A stretch of DNA of 64,000 bases from a phage, in sequence record PZ295659.1; one strand, 5' to 3'. Positions 4,355 to 51,874 of this stretch are shown piece by piece. Every line of letters begins with the position of its first letter. Position 1 is the first letter of the stretch. The notes beneath the pieces are model-generated. The model was given only the letters and a program-made list of their open reading frames with translations. It was not told where the DNA came from and made no database searches. The translations under genes and the position numbers were made by a program.

Positions 4355-7300
4355 ATGGCTACTTTAAAACAAATACAATTTAAAAGAAGCAAAACTGCAG
4401 GAGCACGTCCTGCTGCTTCAGTATTAGCCGAAGGTGAATTGGCTATAAACTTAAAAGACCGTGTACTTTTTACCAAAGATGACCAAGGAAATATTATTGA
4501 TCTGGGTTTTGCTAAAGGTGGTAGTATTGACGGGAATGTTATTCATACTGGCAATTATAACCAGACTGGCGATTATACTTTAAATGGCACCTTCACTCAG
4601 ACAGGTAATTTTAATTTAACTGGTATTGCTCGAGTAACTCGCGATATTATTGCCGCCGGGCAGATTATGACCGAAGGCGGAGAACTTATTACAAAAAGTT
4701 CAGGTACAGCACATGTTCGTTTTCATGATTCAGCTGATCGTGAACGTGGCATTATTTACGCACCGGCTAATGATGGATTAACTACGCAAGTAGTTAATAT
4801 CCGCGTTCAAGACTACGCCGCTGGTGATGAAAGCACCTATGCATTTTCAGGCAGTGGTCAATTTACTTCACCTGAAGTATCGGCATGGAAATCTATGTCA
4901 ACTCCTCAGATTTTGACTGACAAAGTCATTACAGACGGGAAGAAGGCCGGTGATTATGACATCTATTCATTAGCAAATAATAATTCTAACACAGATAAAA
5001 ATAATTTACGTGTCGTACGTACCGACCCAGCGGCCGCAATGCTCCATGAAATTTGTGAAAATAACGGTATCAGTTGGTATTCCGGTTCAACCCCTACTGA
5101 TTATATGTTGTCTTTTGCTTATTCCGGTGGTTTTCAAGCAGGTCATTCGATTGCAGTAGGTATGGAATCAGGGCCTTTGACATATTCAACCTTAGGTAAA
5201 GGTTCTATTGTTCTTGGTGATAATGATACTGGGCTAAAATGGCATCAGGATGGATATTATTTCAGCGTCAATAATGGAACGAAAACATTTTTATTTAGCC
5301 CTAGCGAAACAACTAGCCTAAGAAAATTTGTAGCTGGATATTCTACTAGCGGAACCGATTTAACGACTCCTCCGACAGAAAACTACGCATTAGCCACTGT
5401 TGTTACTTACCATGATAATAACGCGTATGGAGATGGTCAGACTCTTTTAGGATATTATCAAGGCGGTAATTATCATCACTATTTCCGCGGTAAAGGTACC
5501 ACAAACATTAATACTCATGGCGGTTTGTTAGTGACTCCTGGTAATATTGATGTTGTTGGTGGTTCGGTTAATATTGACGGCCGCAACAATGCATCTACTC
5601 TGATGTTCAGAGGAAATACAACAGGATGGAGTTCAGTTGATAATATGACTATCAGCGTTTGGGGTAATACCTTTACTCATATTGATAGCGTCCGTAAAAA
5701 CGTAATGGAAATATCTGATGCCACTAGCTGGATGAGCTATATTCAAAGACTTACTACTGGTGAAGTAGAAATGAACGTCAATGGTTCATTTGAATCATAC
5801 GGTGTTACTGCTGGAAATAGTGGAGTTCACACAACAGGCGAAATTTCATCTGGAGCAGTGAATGCTCTTCGTATTTGGAACGCAGATTATGGAGCCATTT
5901 TTAGACGTTCAGAAGGAAGTCTTCATATTATTCCAACTGCTTATGGTGAAGGTAAACATGGTGATATCGGTCCACTTCGCCCGTTTAGTATGGCTTTAGA
6001 TACCGGTAAAGTTACTATTCCAGATTTACAATCAAGTTATAATACGTTTGCTGCTAACGGTTATATTAAATTTACTGGTCATGGCGCAGGCGCTGGTGGT
6101 TATGACATTCAATATGCTCAAGCGGCTCCTATTTTCCAGGAAATTGATGATGATGCTATAAGCAAATATTATCCTATTGTTAAACAGAAGTTTTTAAATG
6201 GTAAAGCCGTTTGGTCTTTAGGTACTGAGATTAGTTCAGGTACATTCGTTATTCATCATCTGAAAGAAGATGGTTCACAAGGCCATACGTCTCGTTTTAA
6301 TCAAGACGGTACTGTTAACTTCCCGGGTAATGTTCTGGTCGACGGTGATATTAACATGAAAGGCGTGATGACTTTTGACGCCGGACGTTTAGGATCACGA
6401 GATTATTTTAAATTTAACCATTGGGGTGATAGTAATAATGCTCGTGATAACATCATCCAGTTAGAAGATAGTCAAGGCGCTCATTTTTCCACTGAACGTA
6501 CTTTAGCGACAGGTGCAATTAAAACTCGTTTCTTTGGCGAAACATTTACTGATGGTACATTATACCTAAATCAGATGAATAATAGCTCTGAACGATTCCA
6601 TATCAATAATTGGGGAAATTCAGAAGCTGGTCGCGCGGCAGTGATGGAAGTCGGTGATTCCAAAGGTTATCACTTCTATACTGAACGCAGGACAGATAAC
6701 AGTTTGAATTTTGATGTTGGTGGCAATTTTACTGTGCATGGACCTAGCGGGATCACTATCAAAAACTCTGCTGGCGCTCGCCACATCTGGTTTAGAGATG
6801 ATAGCGATGCAGAAAAGGCTGTTATCTGGGCTACAGATGATGGTATTTTACATATACGAAATAATCATGGGGGTCCATTTAGTCATCACTTCCAGGGTGC
6901 AATGATTCTAGCGGGAGAGCGTGTTCCATATAATAGTGAATACGCTCTTATCCGTGGTAATATTTCCGGTGGTGCATGGGTAGACTGGCGAGATCGTCCG
7001 GCTGGATTGTTGGTAGACTGTCAGGACTCACGAAATCAAGCATATAACATTTGGAAAGCTACTCATTGGGGCGAACAGCACATTGCGGCGATGGGTGTTC
7101 ATGCTGGTGGCGGTAATCCTCATGTTGTATTGCATGTTGGTGGGAGTGATTATGCATTTGGATTTAACGGTGATTTTACTGCTGGCGCTGCTGTATATTG
7201 TAACGACGTTTATATTCGTTCTGACCGTCGTCTGAAAATTAATGTTGAAGACTACGAAGAGAATGCGGTAGATAAGGTAAATAAACTCAAAGTTAAAACC

Positions 7301-19274: not shown

Positions 19275-20375
19275 TTACGCTGTGAAGATTTTATCCCACA
19301 TCGCAACAACTGCATCTCGATTATACTTCTTCCATACTGCTTCAGCACGTTTAACTCGAGCTTCGTATGTGTCAGTGAATTCTAATACAGCTTTTGTGTA
19401 AAGCGCAACTACTTCTTTCTTAGGAGTAGAGGAATCAATTTCTACACGCACAGTATCTGGGTCGTATTCGAATGTCGCATGAGGATAATCCTTAAAAACT
19501 AACTGGATTACGGGGACACCTTTAGAGATGGCTTCAATAGAACTATTCTCTACTGTACCTGTGTCAGGACACGTATTAATAAGTGCTTTAGCTGTTTTAA
19601 GGCGTTCCATGATTTCACTGTGTGGAGCATCAATAATAACAGGATATTTAGCTGGTGGAGCCCATTTACTAGGACAGTATCCTACACCATTTTCGCCTAG
19701 TGCTTTAATCGCTTCAAGAGCAACATCGGTACGACGCATTTTAGTGTCATAACGTTGTGCACTAATAATCAGATCAGTCGCCGGAAGAACTTCAGGTTTC
19801 TCATTCAAACAAATAACCGGATAATCTTCGGCTTCAAACAACGGATTTGCTCGCCAATAATCATAATCAATTTTGTCAGTCAGAGCTGAAGTCATATGGC
19901 AATATTTACGTTCAAATTCACGGAAGGCTTTAGTAGGAGCATAACTCTTACCACCATTCTTATGAATTTGAATAGTCTGGTCCCAAATTTGAACAATGCC
20001 ACGAGATACCGGTTCAAATGGTGTTGCCATAAAATTCTTATGAACTTTAGAGAGACCTGCGTCTTTAATTGCCTGAACGGTTAGTTTAGTCGGTTCCATA
20101 GTAACAACAAAATCGTATTCATTGATGCCGGCTAGTTCAACAATCTTACGAGCCATAGTATAACTCATACCTAGACTGAATTTAGTCAGATGACCAACAG
20201 GATGGTGTGTAACTTTCCAGTCACCAAACGTGTCATTATCAAAGCCGATATAATCAATATCAGCACCGATGGACACAAGATATTTCAACACATTTAAATG
20301 TACTGCTTCAAGGCCACCTTGTACACGGTCAGGATTAAATGGGACTGCACGAGATGGGATAAACATAACTTTCAT
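19275..20375 (-). CDS. GT-B fold glycosyltransferase (candidate DNA sugar transferase)
   Basis: 366 aa; N-terminal MKVMFIPSRA... Rossmann-like start and C-terminal ENSSIEAISKGVPVI resembling the GT4 E-x7-E motif; sits between rIIA.1 and gp39. Confidence 0.65.
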   Translation of the reverse strand: MKVMFIPSRAVPFNPDRVQGGLEAVHLNVLKYLVSIGADIDYIGFDNDTFGDWKVTHHPVGHLTKFSLGMSYTMARKIVELAGINEYDFVVTMEPTKLTVQAIKDAGLSKVHKNFMATPFEPVSRGIVQIWDQTIQIHKNGGKSYAPTKAFREFERKYCHMTSALTDKIDYDYWRANPLFEAEDYPVICLNEKPEVLPATDLIISAQRYDTKMRRTDVALEAIKALGENGVGYCPSKWAPPAKYPVIIDAPHSEIMERLKTAKALINTCPDTGTVENSSIEAISKGVPVIQLVFKDYPHATFEYDPDTVRVEIDSSTPKKEVVALYTKAVLEFTDTYEARVKRAEAVWKKYNRDAVVAMWDKIFTA

Positions 20376-37513: not shown

Positions 37514-37855
37514 TTAAAAGAATTTAAATTTTTTCTTGGTCCGTTCATTAAAAGCTTGTTGTACTTGCATTGTAACACATTTTTCAACATGTGGTGCAAG
37601 TTCTGCTTTTCTGTCCTGGTCAAGAACTGCAAAGTCCATTACGATTTTACCATCAACCCAGTCTAGTTTTGTAATATAGACTATATGATGAGAACCATCT
37701 TCAAGCGTAATCAGAATCTCTTGAATGACATTTTCCATTGCTGAACGGATAATTTTAAGAGATTCATTAAACACTCGTTCTTTGCGAATGTCTTCCCCTT
37801 CCGAAGAAGGGGATTCATCAACGATTTCTAGATTTAAATCATCGAGATTATTCAT
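37514..37855 (-). CDS. 40: gp40-like small protein
   Basis: Start at ATG 37855 overlapping the uvsX stop by 8 nt; the alternative TTG at 37876 gives 120 aa; position as T4 gene 40. Confidence 0.5.
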   Translation of the reverse strand: MNNLDDLNLEIVDESPSSEGEDIRKERVFNESLKIIRSAMENVIQEILITLEDGSHHIVYITKLDWVDGKIVMDFAVLDQDRKAELAPHVEKCVTMQVQQAFNERTKKKFKFF

Positions 37856-39020
37856 CGAAATCTTCCATTTCGTCAAGGTCGTTTTCTATATCTGCTGCAG
37901 ACGGAGCATCAGAAGTTTTAACCGGAACTTTAGTTGTTGCTTTGCAATTAATAAGGTCGTTAACAGCGTCATCAACTTCTTTAATAGAAGAGATAGCACC
38001 TAGTTTATATTTAGTTTCAATTGCATCTCGGAAAGGTTTGTGTTTAAACAACGGTCCCCAGAATTCTACACAATCAGTAGCTTTAGCACGCCATGATTTT
38101 TCTTCACGAATCATTTCACCTGTTTCTTCGTCAAGGAATTCACGAGCATACCAACCAGCTTTAGGCTTAACTACAAAACCAATTTCAGTTGCCATTTCTA
38201 ACAAGCCACTGAATGGGTCAATACCACCATCAAAATTAACTGTGATCGGAAAAGTAGATTTCTCTTTAACCGTACGAGATTTTTCTGCTTTCAACGTGAA
38301 GTCATAACCGGTCAATTCTGTACCTTCTTTAACCTGACGTTTAGAGATAAAGAATACAGTGTTAGCAGAGTAAAGAATACCTGTACCACCACCCATAATC
38401 TCTTTAGGATACAATCCGCCAATTTCCATTGCGGTATGGTTAATTGCAACACACGGAATATCTTTAATAGTCAGATACGGGGTCACAATGCGGAACAGAG
38501 ATTTAAGTGCCTTAGCACGAGACATATCACCTACAACTTTCTCGTTCAATGCATCTTCGGTTTCTTTCTTAGATGCAGTATTACCGATTGAATCGATAAA
38601 GATAATAACTTTATCACCGCGTTCAATCGCGTCAAGCTGATTAGTCATATCAACTTTAAGTTGTTCGACAGATTGAATCGGAGTATGAACTACACGGTCT
38701 AAATCAACACCCATTGAACGAAAATAAGATTCTGAAGCACCAAATTCTGAATCATAGAACAAACAAATTGCATCTTTATATTTCTTCATATATGCTGCAA
38801 CCATGGTCAGACCAAACAACGTTTTAAAGTGTTTAGAAGGAGCAGCAAAAATAGTTAAGCCTGATTGCAACCCGGCATTCAGTGCACCACCTAATGCAAT
38901 ATTCAACATCGGAATACGAGTAGGGACTTCATCACGATTATTAAACAGCTTAGACTTAGTCAAGTCTGCAGTCATTTTAGAAGTAGAAGCTTTAATCAGA
39001 CGAGATTTTAAATCAGACAT
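37848..39020 (-). CDS. uvsX: Recombinase UvsX (RecA-like)
   Basis: 390 aa; MSDLKSRLIKASTSKMTADLTKSKLFNNRDEVPTRIPMLNIALGG...; matches remembered T4/RB69 UvsX. Confidence 0.9.
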   Translation of the reverse strand: MSDLKSRLIKASTSKMTADLTKSKLFNNRDEVPTRIPMLNIALGGALNAGLQSGLTIFAAPSKHFKTLFGLTMVAAYMKKYKDAICLFYDSEFGASESYFRSMGVDLDRVVHTPIQSVEQLKVDMTNQLDAIERGDKVIIFIDSIGNTASKKETEDALNEKVVGDMSRAKALKSLFRIVTPYLTIKDIPCVAINHTAMEIGGLYPKEIMGGGTGILYSANTVFFISKRQVKEGTELTGYDFTLKAEKSRTVKEKSTFPITVNFDGGIDPFSGLLEMATEIGFVVKPKAGWYAREFLDEETGEMIREEKSWRAKATDCVEFWGPLFKHKPFRDAIETKYKLGAISSIKEVDDAVNDLINCKATTKVPVKTSDAPSAADIENDLDEMEDFDE

Positions 39021-39120
39021 TGTATTTTTTCCATAGGCATCATTATATTTTACTCATGTTTAAAAGATAAGACGATTATATACTAAGGGTTATACAGCAT
39101 TTAAAACTTTAAACAGGCTC

Positions 39121-39669
39121 TTAACGAGCCCATTTGATAATTTCTGTAATCAAATTATTACGTTCGCTTGCATTAAATCCTATAACTTTGTTAGCACCAT
39201 CATGATTAAGTAATTGATACGTTTGGATTTCGTTATGAATTGCAAACTCTTCAAAATATGAAATGACTGTATTAAAACCGAACGAAGACAAAGTAATAAG
39301 GTCGTCTTCAAAACTTTCAGTCATTTCGTTACGTGTTAAAATAATTGTGAACACATCATGGTTTTGGCAAAGACGAACATAATCCTGTTCATAAACGTCA
39401 AGAACCGAGTCCGCATCTTGTCGAATACGTCCATAAACCCAGTTACTAATATATCCACGGTCTAACAGATAAATCTTAGTAGGGTCTAAATAATTCAACA
39501 TCGTTTCGAAACAGCCAACTTCATTTCGAGACTTAACATCGAAACGTCCATCAACTGTTCGTTTAGGGAAATCAATCTTTACATATCTTTCGCTAATTTC
39601 CATTATGTCATTAATGAAAGTTGTTTTACCAGCATTATCCGGGCCATCTACTAAAATAATTTTAGCCAT
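39121..39669 (-). CDS. P-loop NTPase, nucleoside/nucleotide kinase-like
   Basis: 182 aa; Walker A ILVDGPDNAGKTTF; no direct T4 counterpart at this position. Confidence 0.5.
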   Translation of the reverse strand: MAKIILVDGPDNAGKTTFINDIMEISERYVKIDFPKRTVDGRFDVKSRNEVGCFETMLNYLDPTKIYLLDRGYISNWVYGRIRQDADSVLDVYEQDYVRLCQNHDVFTIILTRNEMTESFEDDLITLSSFGFNTVISYFEEFAIHNEIQTYQLLNHDGANKVIGFNASERNNLITEIIKWAR

Positions 39670-39670
39670 T

Positions 39671-40570
39671 TTATTCCTCGATTACGACATCTTCATATTT
39701 AGGTATATTATACGGCGAAGAAATTAAAGCATTAAAGTAGATGAACTCACCAAGACCTGGATGGAATACTTCTTCAGGATTTTCGAAATATTGAATCTTC
39801 GGTCGTCCTTTAAGAATTTGATAGTACTCAGTTTTAGTTGGGTTAAAAATTCGAATCAGCGCTTCTTCAGGATACTTATTTCTGTCGAAGCTATTATTTG
39901 GATCGGTTATATAAAGCGGTTGGCCTAATTGAATTGCACATTCAACCACTTGTTCAAAACGATAACACGGGTCACTAATTCGAAATGGATGAAAAATACC
40001 ATCTAGATGAATAGGAGCCAAATCACCTACAAGACGCTGCATGATGGAAGGACGTATAACTTTCTGCGTTACGATAATCTTATTACCATCTGCACCTGCG
40101 TTAACCAGCACTTCTTTTTGACGTTCATTCAACACAGTAGTTTGAAGTGAACGATTAACCGACAACATGTCGGTTTTTAAGAATTCGTCAATATAAAAAC
40201 GTGGTTTATTAGGGTCCGCAGTGATATTGAAATTGAATTCCACATCAAAAGCGCCGTCATATCCAGTGATATCTGTGATTAGAAAATCACAATCATAATA
40301 AGCAATTAATGAATCAACCACAAATTCATTTTCAGACCAGAAATATTTACGAGTGTTATATGCGTTATCTTTATACCATAATGGAACAAACTTAAATTCT
40401 GGGAAAAGACGTTCACATTCTTTAATATCAGATGCATTACGTGGATATGTAATCACATCACCCGGATTAGCACGGTGCAAATGAAGTTGGAAGTTGCCAT
40501 CCTTAAGGATAGCATACTGTCCAGTTTCATAAGACCGCATACTCAAGATAGGTACGCGGAAAATAGCCAT
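39671..40570 (-). CDS. Protein of unknown function at the beta-glucosyltransferase locus; candidate DNA sugar transferase
   Basis: 299 aa between uvsX and gp42; no recognisable similarity to remembered T4 beta-gt; no motifs identified. Confidence 0.35.
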   Translation of the reverse strand: MAIFRVPILSMRSYETGQYAILKDGNFQLHLHRANPGDVITYPRNASDIKECERLFPEFKFVPLWYKDNAYNTRKYFWSENEFVVDSLIAYYDCDFLITDITGYDGAFDVEFNFNITADPNKPRFYIDEFLKTDMLSVNRSLQTTVLNERQKEVLVNAGADGNKIIVTQKVIRPSIMQRLVGDLAPIHLDGIFHPFRISDPCYRFEQVVECAIQLGQPLYITDPNNSFDRNKYPEEALIRIFNPTKTEYYQILKGRPKIQYFENPEEVFHPGLGEFIYFNALISSPYNIPKYEDVVIEE

Positions 40571-41286
40571 TAGTCAAGGAATCCTTTAACATAATCAAAA
40601 TCACGTTCAAACACATGGGCACTTACCATGGTATGAGTATAATCACCAACTTCTACACCACATTCGTTAGCGATATAATGAAGTAATTTTCCTTGGAGAT
40701 AAAAATCCAACTGCATAACAACAGCACAGTTCTGAGAACGCATATGACAGTGGGTATAAAGCTTACCATCACGAATATAATAAGTCACTGAGTCAGTACA
40801 TGGATATTCAAGTGTTTCGTCCGAATCAAGCAAAGCCTGATCTGAACTTTCTAGAATTTGGAACACAACTCTTCGGGAGTTAGGCTTCTCTTTAAGTTCT
40901 TTTAGAAGAGCTGGTAATTGAGCCGCAATGCGAGGACCGTAGAAAGTGTTGAAGTTTGCAGGCAAAGCGTCTGATTTAGGTTTAGAAATAAATTTAGCGA
41001 CATTAGGATATGCCTTAAATGCTTCTTCTGCATCAGTACCACCAGAAATCATAAACTTCCAGAAGTCTTCGGCATATTCATAAGAGATGCGATTAATACG
41101 TGGATCGGTCATTTTGAATGATGAAGGGGTATCAACAACTACTGTCATAGACCCAATTTCATTACAACGTCCAATACGAGAATCAGTAACGAACTGTGGA
41201 TTTTCTAAAATTTCACGATTAACAGCTTTAAATGCGGATTGAAAATCTGCGGCTTTAATATATTTCATTGTGTTATGTTTTCCCAT
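40570..41286 (-). CDS. 42: dCMP hydroxymethylase (thymidylate synthase family)
   Basis: 238 aa; PCTDSVTYYIRDGKLYTHCHMRSQN aligns with the T4 gp42 active-site region CTNTVQYLIRD; SD gaggt; N-terminus diverged from my recollection of T4. Confidence 0.65.
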   Translation of the reverse strand: MGKHNTMKYIKAADFQSAFKAVNREILENPQFVTDSRIGRCNEIGSMTVVVDTPSSFKMTDPRINRISYEYAEDFWKFMISGGTDAEEAFKAYPNVAKFISKPKSDALPANFNTFYGPRIAAQLPALLKELKEKPNSRRVVFQILESSDQALLDSDETLEYPCTDSVTYYIRDGKLYTHCHMRSQNCAVVMQLDFYLQGKLLHYIANECGVEVGDYTHTMVSAHVFERDFDYVKGFLD

Positions 41287-41304
41287 GTTTACCTCAATAC
41301 AGTT

Positions 41305-41328
41305 ATTATATACTCAATTCATAAAGCT
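41305..41328 (-). promoter_or_regulatory. Candidate MotA-dependent middle promoter for gene 42
   Basis: Minus-strand AGCTTTA (one mismatch to the TGCTTTA MotA box) 11 nt upstream of TATAAT. Confidence 0.35.
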
Positions 41329-41406: not shown

Positions 41407-41568
41407 TCAGCGTAGTATTCTAGTTGAACAGGTTTCTTTAATCACTTTAGCCGCTTTAGTTTCAAACAGGCCCATAAGGGCCTTTTTAAGAATTTGTTCG
41501 TTGCTGTTAATTTTCGTAGTCAAAATCTCTTCATTAAGTTGGTGGTTAAAAGTTTTTCTAGAAATCAT
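41407..41568 (-). CDS. Possible small protein (53 aa) coupled by ATGA to the Cys-rich gene
   Basis: ATG overlaps the upstream TGA; region also contains a GGCCC/GGGCC hairpin, so coding status is uncertain. Confidence 0.3.
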   Translation of the reverse strand: MISRKTFNHQLNEEILTTKINSNEQILKKALMGLFETKAAKVIKETCSTRILR

Positions 41569-42725
41569 TCCGGGTACCTCAAAGCGTCGTCAGAGTTAGT
41601 TATATCAATAATAGATATAGAGTTTTCTGCTAACCCATTTTTAGATAACTGACGTTTATAATATCTTTCACAATATGTACACGTCGTCCCGCAGATTTCA
41701 TTAGCACAATCGAAATCTGGATGTCTGAACCACCTTTTTTCTAAAAAGCCATCTAACAAAGAGGTTTCAATATTTACCGTATGTGAAAACTCGGTCTCAT
41801 TTTCAAGAGTGAAAATAGTCTCTAAAGGCTTCCACAATTCCAACAAATTACCTTCAAATTTTTCAGAAGCATAAGCTTCAAGAACTTTCAAAATGTAGTC
41901 TGTGCTACCTGTACGTCCTGAAACTTTGAATTGAGTGATACCAATATCATTATAAAGTTTCAAATCTTGAGGACGAACAAAACGAGTTCTCAACCAGTTA
42001 AATGGGTCTGTATCACGAGCTTTAATACAGTGTTGCATTGGATAGCCATTTAAGGATTTGGCATCATCTACTGTAACGTCGGTGCTATGGAAAATATAGC
42101 AAGAGTCACGATAGCTACAATGTGTTGTATACCCTTTACCAGCATTAGAACAGAACTCATTTACAAGAACTTCAAATATTATATTGTTCTTATTGCAAAA
42201 CTCTGCTGCACGCTTCAGGAAAGAAACTGAACGGTTCTTATGAATTCCACAGCAGACCTTTTTGATATTATATTGGTCATGCAAGTATTTGATTTGAGTT
42301 ACAGCATCGACATGTAGAATTGTTGAAACTTCAATCTCAATGTCTTTATTAACTTCACGAACAATTTCCATAACAACAGGGTTAGCGATAGTAATACGCC
42401 ATACGCCTATTGACCAAAGATACTGAACATAATCCTGAATAGCTTTCTTCTTCCACTCAACTAGTTCTCTTTTTGAACCAGGATTTATCGTGTTGAGTGT
42501 ATAGTTAAAGCAAATACCTAATTCGTTACAACGTTTAACATAATCTTCTAACATCTTTTTGTCAACGTCAGGAAGCCTAAAATCAGGTCTGGCTGCTACA
42601 AAAGCCATTTCTCTTGTAGAGCCGTATACTTCATTTATCAAGCTATTAGGATAAGTTTTATTGAGCTCTACGATTTTATCAAGAAGAGCTAAATCAAAAT
42701 TCGTTCCGATTTTAAAAGTATTCAT
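41565..42725 (-). CDS. Cys-rich protein of unknown function, possible metal or Fe-S binding, in the sugar-nucleotide module
   Basis: 386 aa; C-terminal CANEICGTTCTYC (C-x4-C-x3-C-x2-C) plus further Cys pairs; weak resemblance to U32-type Cys-rich segments not confirmed. Confidence 0.5.
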   Translation of the reverse strand: MNTFKIGTNFDLALLDKIVELNKTYPNSLINEVYGSTREMAFVAARPDFRLPDVDKKMLEDYVKRCNELGICFNYTLNTINPGSKRELVEWKKKAIQDYVQYLWSIGVWRITIANPVVMEIVREVNKDIEIEVSTILHVDAVTQIKYLHDQYNIKKVCCGIHKNRSVSFLKRAAEFCNKNNIIFEVLVNEFCSNAGKGYTTHCSYRDSCYIFHSTDVTVDDAKSLNGYPMQHCIKARDTDPFNWLRTRFVRPQDLKLYNDIGITQFKVSGRTGSTDYILKVLEAYASEKFEGNLLELWKPLETIFTLENETEFSHTVNIETSLLDGFLEKRWFRHPDFDCANEICGTTCTYCERYYKRQLSKNGLAENSISIIDITNSDDALRYPE

Positions 42726-42779
42726 TTTTACATCTCGCGTTAATTGATGCGATGGTTTTTGCAGGTCTTACTTAAATTA

Positions 42780-43181
42780 TTATAGATTCGGTTTATATGA
42801 TTTAAATGTTTCGAATTCGCCTTTATTCATAAGAGCTTTGAATTCGTCAGGACGCATAGCTTTGTCGTCGATAATCCAATCATATACTGGTTTATGTGTT
42901 AGCAAATTATGGTACTTCAAGCCAATGTTTGCCAAGTTCTGAATCAGACTTGGGAGAATGTCAATTGCTATACGACCAGGACCTACTGACTTCATACCGC
43001 GAGCAGTGTAAAGCGTTATTGTATGCCCTGCATCATACAGGGCATTAATGGCAGACACCATTTCGACGTCTGGTTTGAAGTTCACGTAATCACGATTGTT
43101 ATTCCACTCGGTTATACAATCATCGACATCAAAACAAAGATTAAGCATGTTTTCTACACGGTGCATTAGATTCGTTCCCAT
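42780..43181 (-). CDS. HAD-superfamily phosphatase (small, capless)
   Basis: 133 aa; motif I-like FDVDDCIT, then LYTAR and KP...WIIDDKA; an alternative ATG at 43166 overlaps the upstream stop as TAATG. Confidence 0.55.
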   Translation of the reverse strand: MGTNLMHRVENMLNLCFDVDDCITEWNNNRDYVNFKPDVEMVSAINALYDAGHTITLYTARGMKSVGPGRIAIDILPSLIQNLANIGLKYHNLLTHKPVYDWIIDDKAMRPDEFKALMNKGEFETFKSYKPNL

Positions 43182-44851
43182 TGATGAGTGATATCGCCAC
43201 CGATTGGACGATAGGAAACACCAGTTTCTTTATCAGTTAGTACCCATTTACCAGGATTTTTTGTAATCAGAGTAGCCGTTACAGGTTCTGCTACGTCATA
43301 ACTAATAGAGCCGTCTTGAAGTACACGGCCCATGTTACGTAATTGCTTAGTCAGAAGTTCCATACCTTTATAATATGCGGCTACCGCTTTAAGTGGATTA
43401 TTCTTGAAATAACCACCTAATGCAATCCAGATAATTGCTACAGCCAAATGATGATACTCGTTAAACGAACTCATCTTTCCATATTTGTAAACTAATGGAT
43501 TGATGTTAATAGTCACATTACAAGTTGTTTCATCAATAGTAAACTGACCCCAGGTCGGATTAGCGTTGAATTCATCATAACCTGAAACAGCGTAAAGCAC
43601 TTTAGCTTCATCATACAATTTTGGCCCGTAAATCTTGGTTTCACCAAAATATCCACGAGGGTCGATAAACTTGACTTCACCATTATCAGTAATCATAGTA
43701 TTACTGAAGTTCGGGTCACCATGAATAACAGAGTACTGTCCCTGAGAACGGTTATGATAACGAATAAGGTGTTCTAAAGCTTGTTTCAACATTGGCTTCA
43801 GACGTCCAATCTTAGTGTAGTTCACATGTGTGATTTTACCAAATGAATCAATCAATGGTTGAATACTTTCACAACGATCAATAACTTTCGTATAGAATTC
43901 TTTAGTGAAATCACGACGAACAGTTTCAGGACTTACAAAATAAGTGTCTGTGCTGAATTTCAGTGCATCTAAAATTGCATCAACAATTTGTGGACGAGCA
44001 AGACTCGATTTGGATTTAATATATTCAAATGCCGGCTTACCTTTAATGCGTTCCATTTCAAAGTTATTTTCATTAACAGAAACTAACTGAGGAACTGAAT
44101 CTGATTTCACTTTAAGATACCATGAAATCTCATCTTTCTGAAGAGCTCGACCCTGTTCGGTTAATGCGAATTTAGTTACAGTTTCTTCACCAATTTCAAC
44201 TGCATTAAAACTACGATTAAGTTCACGAACTTCATGAGCTTTTTCAAGTTTAGGCATATCACCTAAATCAATTAGATTCATAAGCTCTGATTTATTGAAT
44301 GCGCTGCCGTAAAGGAATTCTACGAAATCACGCCCTTTGCAGTATTCATGAATTTCCTCATCAGTAGAACCCATATAGAATTCCCAGTCTTTGAACTGAT
44401 AAATTCCTACAACATTACCACCTGTTGAACCTACGTTAGTGATATTTTCACCGTCGAAATTATATCGACATTCGTCACCCTTAACATAGATTGCGTTAAC
44501 ATTCCAAGACCATGAACCAAAATCAGGAATAATATCGCACCAGTTAACAATTACATTATGGCTGTCTAAATCTTTGTGTAATTTAGCAAGAGCATAAGCA
44601 GAACCATACGCTTCATCAACTGTACGAATAGTCACATTGAACCCTTCTTGCTCACAATAAGCTCGAACAGTTTCAGCAAATTTTGAATGAACTACTACAA
44701 TAATTTCATCTGCGCCAAGGTCAGAATAAATTGTATACAAATTGCTCAGAATAGTGTCTTGTTTATAGTTAACAAGCACCTTAGGAATATGATGCGTTAT
44801 TGGATACAAACGAGTTGCCAGTCCAGCACCAAGAATAACAGCTTTTTTCAT
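43166..44851 (-). CDS. Bifunctional sugar-1-phosphate nucleotidyltransferase / APH-fold sugar kinase fusion
   Basis: 561 aa; N-terminal AVILGAGLATRLYP (RmlA-type G-x-G-T-R-L), C-terminal VIHGDPNFSNTMI...FIDPRG (Brenner and D-x-x-G motifs of choline/aminoglycoside kinase fold). Confidence 0.65.
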   Translation of the reverse strand: MKKAVILGAGLATRLYPITHHIPKVLVNYKQDTILSNLYTIYSDLGADEIIVVVHSKFAETVRAYCEQEGFNVTIRTVDEAYGSAYALAKLHKDLDSHNVIVNWCDIIPDFGSWSWNVNAIYVKGDECRYNFDGENITNVGSTGGNVVGIYQFKDWEFYMGSTDEEIHEYCKGRDFVEFLYGSAFNKSELMNLIDLGDMPKLEKAHEVRELNRSFNAVEIGEETVTKFALTEQGRALQKDEISWYLKVKSDSVPQLVSVNENNFEMERIKGKPAFEYIKSKSSLARPQIVDAILDALKFSTDTYFVSPETVRRDFTKEFYTKVIDRCESIQPLIDSFGKITHVNYTKIGRLKPMLKQALEHLIRYHNRSQGQYSVIHGDPNFSNTMITDNGEVKFIDPRGYFGETKIYGPKLYDEAKVLYAVSGYDEFNANPTWGQFTIDETTCNVTININPLVYKYGKMSSFNEYHHLAVAIIWIALGGYFKNNPLKAVAAYYKGMELLTKQLRNMGRVLQDGSISYDVAEPVTATLITKNPGKWVLTDKETGVSYRPIGGDITHQWERI

Positions 44852-44892
44852 GTTGTGGTCCTCATTGGTAAGTAGGAGTATTGTACACTATT

Positions 44893-45036
44893 CTAGTTAA
44901 AGCATTCATACTTTGCTTGTAGTCCAATCATAATCCATCCGATTACAAGTGTTGGAATCATTACTGGAGCCGTTAAGCTCCAGTAGATAGTCATGACAAG
45001 CATCAATAGTAAAAGTCCTATTGTTATTGCTTTCAT
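44893..45036 (-). CDS. Small hydrophobic peptide (47 aa) coupled by ATGA to the isomerase gene
   Basis: MKAITIGLLLLMLVMTIYWSLTAPVMIPTLVIGWIMIGL...; ATG overlaps the TGA of the SIS gene. Confidence 0.4.
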   Translation of the reverse strand: MKAITIGLLLLMLVMTIYWSLTAPVMIPTLVIGWIMIGLQAKYECFN

Positions 45037-45668
45037 TGTTCGCCTCGTAACATGGCACCTAGTGCACCGCCAGGGTGGAACTTAAGGAAGTCATTAGAGG
45101 TAAATCCACGTTCAGACGAAAGGTTGATAGCAAACGTATCGATAAGCGCTAACAACAATGTAGTGGACATGGTCGGAGCCAGAGAATTCTCATCAACCTC
45201 TACTGCGATGCCTGTACAGAACGTATAATCAAAAAGAGCTTCATATTCTTGTGGAATGTCTGGGTTACAATGCAACAGAATCTGTTTGACGTTCGGACGA
45301 ATCATTTTAAGATGCTTAGCCACGCCTATCATTTCTTCAGTTTTACCAGAACGACTAATATGAATCAACACATCATTAGGCGCAATGAATCCTGCATCAC
45401 CGTGAGAATAATGCCCGGTGTTCAAGTACATACTAGGGATACCGAGTGAAGCAAATGTTTCAGAAGCTTTAGTTGCAATATTAGCATTCTTACCAACACC
45501 TGTAATAATTACTCGGCTTTCATAATTACTAAGCCCTGGGCGTCGAAGAGTTTCTAGAATAGCATTATAACGAGCAGGGTTTTGACTAATTACTTTGGCC
45601 ATAGCGGCCAAAGAAGAAGCTTGTTTTATGATTGCGTCAATAGCGATAGTAATAGGAGTAGTTTTCAT
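45033..45668 (-). CDS. SIS-domain sugar-phosphate isomerase, KdsD/GutQ-like (arabinose-5-phosphate isomerase type) without CBS domains
   Basis: 211 aa; ITGVGKNANIATKASETFASLGIPSMYLNTGHYSHGDAGFIAPNDVLIHISRSGKT parallels the KdsD SIS core GMGKSGHIG...HGDLG...ISNSGES. Confidence 0.7.
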   Translation of the reverse strand: MKTTPITIAIDAIIKQASSLAAMAKVISQNPARYNAILETLRRPGLSNYESRVIITGVGKNANIATKASETFASLGIPSMYLNTGHYSHGDAGFIAPNDVLIHISRSGKTEEMIGVAKHLKMIRPNVKQILLHCNPDIPQEYEALFDYTFCTGIAVEVDENSLAPTMSTTLLLALIDTFAINLSSERGFTSNDFLKFHPGGALGAMLRGEQ

Positions 45669-51832: not shown

Positions 51833-51874
51833 TTAATTTGATGTGGTCATTATAACCACATCGTGTTAAAGCAT

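Follow-up and report, generated by a model that had tools for sequence, protein, structure and literature searches.

Organisation of the locus

The present analysis concerns two adjoining genes, encoding proteins of 299 and 182 amino acids (aa), in a stretch of 64,000 nucleotides from the phage sequence record PZ295659.1 (hereafter referred to as the window). The window derives from an RB69-like Mosigvirus, with 98.8% identity to Escherichia phage HY126 and 98.0% to RB69 in a megablast search with positions 39000-41300, which returned 614 phage records with HY126 as the top match. On the minus strand, the genes follow each other in the order of a 238-aa homologue of thymidylate synthase (ThyA; 40570..41286), a 299-aa glycosyltransferase (GT) of the GT-B fold (39671..40570), a 182-aa thymidylate-kinase-like P-loop kinase (39121..39669), uvsX (37848-39020), gp40 and gp41. 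The ThyA homologue, corresponding to the flavin-dependent 5-hydroxy-deoxycytidine monophosphate (5hodCMP) synthase gp48 of RB69, is the first gene of a three-gene unit, in which the GT is predicted to be the base-proximal (first) arabinofuranosyltransferase of a 5-hydroxycytosine pathway and the kinase is predicted to use a modified deoxypyrimidine monophosphate. This synthase-GT-kinase unit probably forms the central part of the pathway by which arabinosyl-5-hydroxycytosine arises in the DNA of RB69-type phages.

Both open reading frames (ORFs) are present as described in an initial annotation of the window made from the sequence alone. They are real genes and not chance ORFs, since TBLASTN searches of a phage collection identified them in 349 (GT) and 344 (kinase) records and the coding sequence annotation of HY126 gives identical boundaries for the two (XAN60474 for the GT, XAN60473 for the kinase). 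The translation of the kinase begins MAKIILVDGPDNAGKTTF and carries the Walker A string quoted in that annotation. The slot was also correctly recognised as that of the beta-glucosyltransferase gene (b-gt) of T4, where the order is 42 / b-gt / segA / uvsX / 40 / 41, with segA as an additional gene in the slot. The neighbouring gene, which had been taken for gene 42 encoding a dCMP hydroxymethylase, requires correction, as its product is the 5hodCMP synthase (PMC13326640). It matches Pfam Thymidylat_synt (2.4e-15) and the HY126 entries 9iqc, 9ir2 and 9iqu in the PDB (E 6e-163), and its translation carries the RSQN...D signature (D169N and N177D in the numbering of Escherichia coli ThyA). Lee et al. 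(NAR 2026, PMC13326640) showed that RB69 gp48 synthesises 5hodCMP in a flavin- and O2-dependent reaction. The stop codon of the synthase gene overlaps the start codon of the GT gene (TAATG), with a gap of one nucleotide between the GT stop and the start of the kinase gene; judged by this spacing, the GT and the kinase are evidently coupled translationally to the upstream ThyA homologue.

The 299-aa glycosyltransferase

The 299-aa protein corresponds to ORF047c and ORF046c together ('gp46:47') of RB69, gp79 of DLP3 and TH1_063 of Thanatos, with identities of 45.6% to DLP3 gp79 and 47% to TH1_063 over 98-100% of the length. In the RB69 reference record (AY303349, 7670-8570) the gene is split into ORF046c and ORF047c, which Lee et al. 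ascribe to a sequencing error (PMC13326640), while it is an intact frame of 299 codons in the window; in the structure search with the 299-aa model, ORF047c matched the 181 N-terminal residues (99%) and ORF046c the 116 C-terminal ones (98%). The RB69 and DLP3 proteins are named 'arabinosyltransferase 1', a function that is likewise a prediction for the protein in the window.

Sequence comparisons alone do not place the protein in a known family. No match was obtained in Pfam or NCBIfam, none of the 44 family members matched any GT model of Pfam, Glycos_transf_1 included, at E<=1, a profile of the family matched nothing among the PDB sequences, and the only assignment was to PHROG 3891, of unknown function. 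The family is also narrow, comprising 138 proteins in the homologue search and no more than 228 when 1.84 billion cluster representatives were searched exhaustively with a profile. The fold was therefore examined, as the initial annotation had advised for a GT-A or a GT-B architecture. The AlphaFold model, built from the 44-sequence alignment, has a predicted local distance difference test score (pLDDT) of 94.7 and a predicted template modelling score (pTM) of 0.89, and displays two Rossmann-like beta/alpha/beta domains that flank a cleft, by which the protein is assigned to the GT-B fold with high confidence. Within this fold, the model points to a GT4-like enzyme, probably of the retaining type. 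The protein shares the fold with GT4-type retaining enzymes such as sucrose-phosphate synthase (6kih), BshA, PimA and WaaG at only 7-12% identity, differing from them in its smaller size (299 aa as against 340-500) and in its predicted acceptor, a modified DNA base or nucleotide. Residues R197, D200, K246 and H270-P271-G272 in the C-terminal half are invariant in the family alignment, as are R12, K23, R33 and R74.

A diverged T4 b-gt product was considered as an identity for the protein and dropped, as the profile comparison was null (hhalign probability 0.1), consistent with the absence of resemblance noted in the initial annotation. The T4 alpha- and beta-glucosyltransferases are also expected to differ in their chemistry, using uridine diphosphate (UDP)-glucose and a hydroxymethyl group, as compared to a predicted UDP-arabinofuranose donor and a predicted transfer to the 5-OH of the ring, with an ether bond, for the 299-aa GT. 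An origin as a paralogue of RB69 ORF003c was similarly dropped after a null profile comparison with its 366-aa homologue in the window. Very distant relatives occur in two other T4-like phages, Serratia phage PS2 (NC_024121, 24150-24683; 24% identity over the N-terminal half) and Serratia phage Muldoon (A0A5P8PH66; 18% identity, template modelling score 0.75). The UDP-xylose pyrophosphorylase activity reported for TH1_063 (Thanatos-1, 4995-5897 of the locus analysed, L006) does not match a GT-B fold.

The 182-aa kinase

The 182-aa protein corresponds to ORF045c of RB69, gp78 of DLP3 and TH1_064 of Thanatos (44% identity to the last). It has the fold of thymidylate kinase (Tmk) and matches PHROG 761 'thymidylate kinase' at 5e-45. 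At the sequence level, the likeness is confined to a small region: Tmk sequences of the PDB matched at E-values of 0.004-0.07 over the N-terminal ~40 residues only (P-loop to FPKR), the protein without its P-loop matched nothing in the PDB, and the hhalign alignment of the family with E. coli Tmk was limited to the P-loop. No match to Pfam PF02223 (Thymidylate_kin) was found, AAA models matching weakly, and the score against TIGR00041 was 15.6 bits as against a cut-off of 83.25. The dNMP kinase of the T4 gp1 type (1dek/1del) was not the closest structural relative.

Motifs were mapped through a MAFFT alignment with E. coli Tmk (sequence verified against 4tmk), which is ambiguous near the base-binding helix. 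The Walker A motif reads GPDNAGKTT, in which the acidic D11 is invariant in the family, and this aspartate presumably corresponds to the Tmk residue contacting the 3'-OH of the deoxyribose. D70-R71, S75, N76 and Y79 are likewise invariant (DRGYISNWVY in the window, DRHDLSTQAY in Tmk). The protein retains FPKR (FTRE in Tmk) and F54, whose Tmk counterpart we take to be the residue that stacks on the base. In no family member does an Arg or Lys occur in the four residues past this Phe (ETML in the window), and, however this ambiguous stretch is aligned, no Arg falls opposite E. coli Tmk R78, which we take to be the residue reading O4 of thymine. These motifs fit a deoxypyrimidine-monophosphate kinase without thymine specificity. 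The proposal in the initial annotation that the P-loop protein phosphorylates a nucleotide or a sugar intermediate thus holds for the nucleotide, on the basis of the predicted fold and motifs, and falls away for the sugar.

The kinase accordingly shares the fold, the Walker A and the DR motif with thymidylate kinases (E. coli 4tmk, vaccinia 2v54) and differs from them in failing the curated HMM thresholds, in lacking the thymine-O4 Arg and in its genetic association with a cytosine-modification module. An ordinary deoxythymidine monophosphate (dTMP) kinase without any specific link to DNA modification, suggested by the Tmk fold and by the label 'thymidylate kinase' in many genome records, is on these grounds very unlikely; the near one-to-one co-occurrence with the GT (344 and 349 records), the absence of such a gene from the equivalent region of T4 and the existence of GT-kinase fusions, described below, argue further against it.

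Distribution and fusion proteins

The GT and the kinase have nearly the same genus counts in the phage collection. The second GT-B enzyme of the pathway, the 366-aa GT, was identified in 212 records, representing Mosigvirus and Acinetobacter phages; Klebsiella, Enterobacter, Yersinia and Proteus phages and Thanatos are listed among the carriers of the 299-aa GT and not among the matches of the 366-aa protein. The 299-aa type was the only GT seen in the examined stretch around the Thanatos cluster, and Thanatos is said to be mono-arabinosylated (PMC13326640). The synthase-GT-kinase order is shared by DLP3 (gp80/79/78) and Thanatos (TH1_062/063/064), and the trio recurs in Acinetobacter and Shewanella phages.

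Distant modules of this kind were found in two metagenome contigs of 356 kb (L004) and 122 kb (L005), each with a ThyA homologue, a GT of ~37% identity and a 181-185-aa kinase homologue, the latter recognised by 30% identity (E 7e-20) in L005 and by an hhalign probability of 99% in L004. The GT lies directly downstream of the ThyA homologue in L005 and is separated from it by one 200-aa gene in L004. Both ThyA homologues carry the RS(Q/N)N...D signature used by Lee et al. to predict 5hodCMP synthases (PMC13326640). A gene for a Flavodoxin_2 protein, of the type of flavin mononucleotide (FMN)-dependent NAD(P)H oxidoreductases, lies directly upstream of the trio in L005 (6739-7293) and ~6 kb upstream in L004 (1-523), and its product may be the flavin reductase that serves the flavin-dependent synthase.

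In four representative clusters (P0255, P0259, P0266 and P0286, at loci L009, L011, L012 and L013), the GT is fused to a C-terminal Tmk-like domain, the order of the domains being that of the genes in the window. The similarity of these domains to the kinase family is weak (hhalign E 7.5e-4 to 1.6e-3) but extends over 130-150 alignment columns, among them those of the P-loop and of [TD]R-x-[FY]-IS-[DN]-x-VY; the domains match Pfam Thymidylate_kin below threshold (1.2e-4), show GK[DN][ST] as an atypical form of Walker A and carry TR in place of DR. One of the fusions is located on a T4-like contig adjoining SIS, NTP-transferase and U32 genes, the contigs of the other three being too short to show a genomic context, and no ThyA homologue was detectable in the genes flanking the fusion at L012. 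In at least five other proteins (P0166, P0176, P0178, P0195 and P0247), the GT follows an N-terminal HAD phosphatase-like domain (DFDG...GDS...GDD). One such fusion, at L010 (8001-9650), is placed after a ThyA homologue and before SIS and NTP-transferase genes, with an AAA_28 P-loop gene 4 kb downstream; AAA_28 also matches a kinase-family member of the DLP3 type. No mention of either kind of fusion was found in the literature covered, which did not extend to He et al. 2026 and Mahler et al. 2025.

Other pathway genes and transcription signals

The 366-aa GT, a homologue of RB69 ORF003c, is encoded at 19275..20375 on the minus strand, 20 kb from the 299-aa GT, and is proposed to transfer the second arabinose. 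It has no Pfam match and is essentially identical to the 'phage HY126 glycosyltransferase' of the PDB (9iqz/9ir0; E 1.8e-251); the 299-aa GT is unrelated to it in sequence and has a wider distribution. The PDB holds the synthase and the 366-aa GT of HY126, and sequence and profile searches found no entry matching the 299-aa GT or the 182-aa kinase.

The rest of the pathway is clustered at 41565..45668, also on the minus strand. On the basis of Pfam and PHROG matches, it comprises a U32-family protein of 386 aa (41565-42725; Pfam Peptidase_U32 at 6e-11, with a weak match to UbiU), an HAD phosphatase homologous to AfhF (42780-43181), a 561-aa nucleotidyltransferase and kinase homologous to AfhE (43166-44851; Pfam NTP_transferase) and an SIS arabinose-5-phosphate isomerase (45033-45668). 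The gene of the 561-aa protein, intact in the window, is split into ORF052c and ORF053c in the RB69 record (AY303349, 11167-12853), so that searches against the RB69 annotations under-report both this gene and ORF046c/047c. The U32 gene lies just upstream of the synthase gene with one small ORF between them, and recurs in Thanatos (TH1_065) and at loci L011 and L012. The U32 members RlhA, TrhP and UbiU/V are O2-independent hydroxylases, of which RlhA forms 5-hydroxycytidine in ribosomal RNA, and by analogy the phage protein could allow 5-hydroxycytosine to be formed anaerobically. Lee et al. label it a 'sugar or heterocycle reductase', and on their assignment of functions the four proteins would jointly supply UDP-arabinofuranose (PMC13326640).

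A motif resembling T4 middle promoters, GCTT-N13-TATAAT, is present at 41305..41327 on the minus strand, just upstream of the ThyA homologue, and is likely to mark where transcription of the three genes begins; in the close relative SA79RD, a middle promoter is annotated at this site. A second such motif, likewise annotated in SA79RD, lies at 39707..39730 on the same strand, within the 3'-terminal part of the GT gene and upstream of the kinase start. The pattern GCTT-N13-15-TATAAT has 10 matches in the window as against 0.97 expected from shuffled sequences, with 8 of the 10 on the minus (coding) strand, one of them at 51849-51872, while a scan of the window for sigma-70 promoters remained below the shuffle expectation. 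A weak terminator-like GC hairpin with a T-rich tail, GGCTC-GTTAA-GAGCC, covers the kinase stop codon (39103..39131, minus strand); the annotation of SA79RD has a rho-independent terminator at this place, and a consensus terminator scan did not call the hairpin.

Proposed pathway

The DNA of RB69 and DLP3 contains mono- and poly-arabinosylated 5-hydroxycytosine, the sugar being attached through an ether bond (Lee et al., NAR 2026, PMC13326640). The acceptor is hence 5-hydroxycytosine and not 5-hydroxymethylcytosine, as had been presumed in the initial annotation, whereas the candidacy of the 299-aa protein as a DNA pentosyltransferase advanced there is supported by its predicted GT-B fold, its homology to 'arabinosyltransferase 1' and its linkage. 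Table 1 of PMC13326640 lists gp46:47/gp79 under that name and gp45/gp78 as 'nucleotide kinase', so that the labels of both genes in the context of arabinosyl-5-hydroxycytosine date from 2025-2026; the assignment of the GT and the kinase to the pathway is already published as a prediction and is not new.

In the explanation that we regard as probable, the synthase would make 5hodCMP, and the 182-aa kinase would phosphorylate a modified pyrimidine nucleotide, most likely 5hodCMP to its diphosphate, thus feeding 5-hydroxy-dCTP (5hodCTP) to the polymerase. The isomerase and the AfhE and AfhF homologues of the neighbouring cluster would generate UDP-arabinofuranose, from which the 299-aa GT would move D-arabinofuranose onto the C5 hydroxyl of 5-hydroxycytosine in DNA, forming the base-proximal, alpha-linked arabinose, and the 366-aa GT would add the second sugar. 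Folds, homology, linkage and the distribution among phages are the observations; the sugar donor and its acceptor, which transferase acts first and what the kinase phosphorylates are inferred from them. A first transfer on replicated DNA is favoured: every known phage DNA glycosylation provides an analogy, and 5hodCTP is both produced and used for DNA synthesis. That the 299-aa family is universal and acts first is supported by its distribution, with 349 records as against 212 for the 366-aa type, and by its being the only type seen in the part of Thanatos covered.

Several observations weigh against this explanation. RB69 gp159, a dNMP kinase of the T4 gp1 type, already converts 5hodCMP to its diphosphate, due to which a second 5hodCMP kinase appears redundant, and the individual DLP3 transferases showed no activity on DNA containing 5-hydroxycytosine (PMC13326640). 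DLP3 gp76 and gp77, for their part, were active only in combination. TH1_063 did not transfer sugar to plasmid DNA, dCMP or dCTP, all substrates without a 5-OH (Brandt et al., PMC12838424), and no report of transfer activity for the 299-aa family was found in the literature covered. The GT and the kinase are also acidic, with isoelectric points of 5.05 and 4.74; this is a weak objection, since UvsX is acidic too and charge is therefore uninformative as a clue to DNA binding.

The first two of these observations would be accounted for, together with the coupling and occasional fusion of the GT and the kinase, if glycosylation preceded replication: the 299-aa GT would arabinosylate free 5hodCMP, the Tmk-like kinase would be dedicated to the resulting arabinosyl-5-hydroxy-dCMP, a bulky nucleotide that the general gp1-type kinase may refuse, and the glycosylated triphosphate would be polymerised into DNA. 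The tight, translationally coupled and deeply conserved synthase-GT-kinase order and the natural fusions, whose domain order is that of the genes, are in keeping with such a scheme, and Lee et al. cannot distinguish a mononucleotide from DNA as the substrate of the first arabinosylation (PMC13326640). We nevertheless consider it rather unlikely. To our knowledge, all characterised phage DNA glycosylations are post-replicative, and complete modification is easier to achieve on DNA. Co-expression of the synthase with the gp1-type kinase places unglycosylated 5-hydroxycytosine in DNA, which indicates that 5hodCTP is made and used, and fused domains may catalyse non-consecutive steps, as in AfhE, which joins steps 1 and 3 (PMC13326640). 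The fused kinase domains, moreover, have an atypical Walker A and match the family weakly (hhalign E ~1e-3), and at L010 a distance of 4 kb separates the kinase gene from the HAD-GT fusion.

Assignments that leave the 299-aa protein without the first transfer fare less well. The order of the transferases could be reversed, with the 366-aa GT adding the first arabinose to 5-hydroxycytosine in DNA and the 299-aa protein adding the second sugar or serving as an accessory, as ORF003c was proposed to be the arabinosyltransferase by Thomas et al. 2018, who overlooked the split GT gene (PMC6024577), and as it was the structure of the 366-aa GT (9iqz/9ir0) and not that of the 299-aa protein that the HY126 group solved. 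This is improbable in view of the wider host spread of the 299-aa family and its presence in 137 more phage records, and of the association of its gene with the synthase in the distant contigs (L004, L005 and L010); in addition, a Bas46 mutant devoid of the arabinosyltransferase Aat was obtained and challenged with defence systems (PMC13216743), which suggests that the deleted gene encodes a dispensable outer-sugar transferase, the paper itself being silent on which transferase it is. The purified TH1_063, 47% identical to the protein in the window, was reported to form UDP-xylose from UTP and xylose-1-phosphate (PMC12838424), from which the 299-aa protein might be taken for a UDP-pentose pyrophosphorylase involved in donor synthesis. 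This appears most improbable: its fold is GT-B and not that of a nucleotidyltransferase, an NTP_transferase domain is present in the nearby 561-aa protein, and the HY126 counterpart of the latter, AfhE, is a reported UDP-arabinose pyrophosphorylase (PMC13326640, where He et al., Nat Chem Biol 2026, are cited for the Afh enzymes of HY126). As the only control in the TH1_063 assay was a reaction without enzyme, a co-purified host enzyme may have been responsible for the activity.

Conclusions

The main value of the finding is that it confirms the ability of a reading of the sequence by itself to pick the right genes. Arabinosyl-5-hydroxycytosine gives these phages protection against restriction enzymes, CRISPR-Cas and DNA glycosylases, and the genes involved are relevant to phage therapy and to the enzymatic production of glycosylated DNA. 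Material for testing the acceptor of the first transferase and the substrate of the kinase is available in the two kinds of fusion protein, GT-kinase and HAD-GT, and in the distant modules of synthase, GT and kinase. Should the pre-replicative alternative prove true, it would be the first pre-replicative pathway of DNA glycosylation, in which a phage polymerises an already glycosylated dCTP analogue, and the conserved synthase-GT-kinase order together with the GT-kinase fusions would be its genomic footprint.

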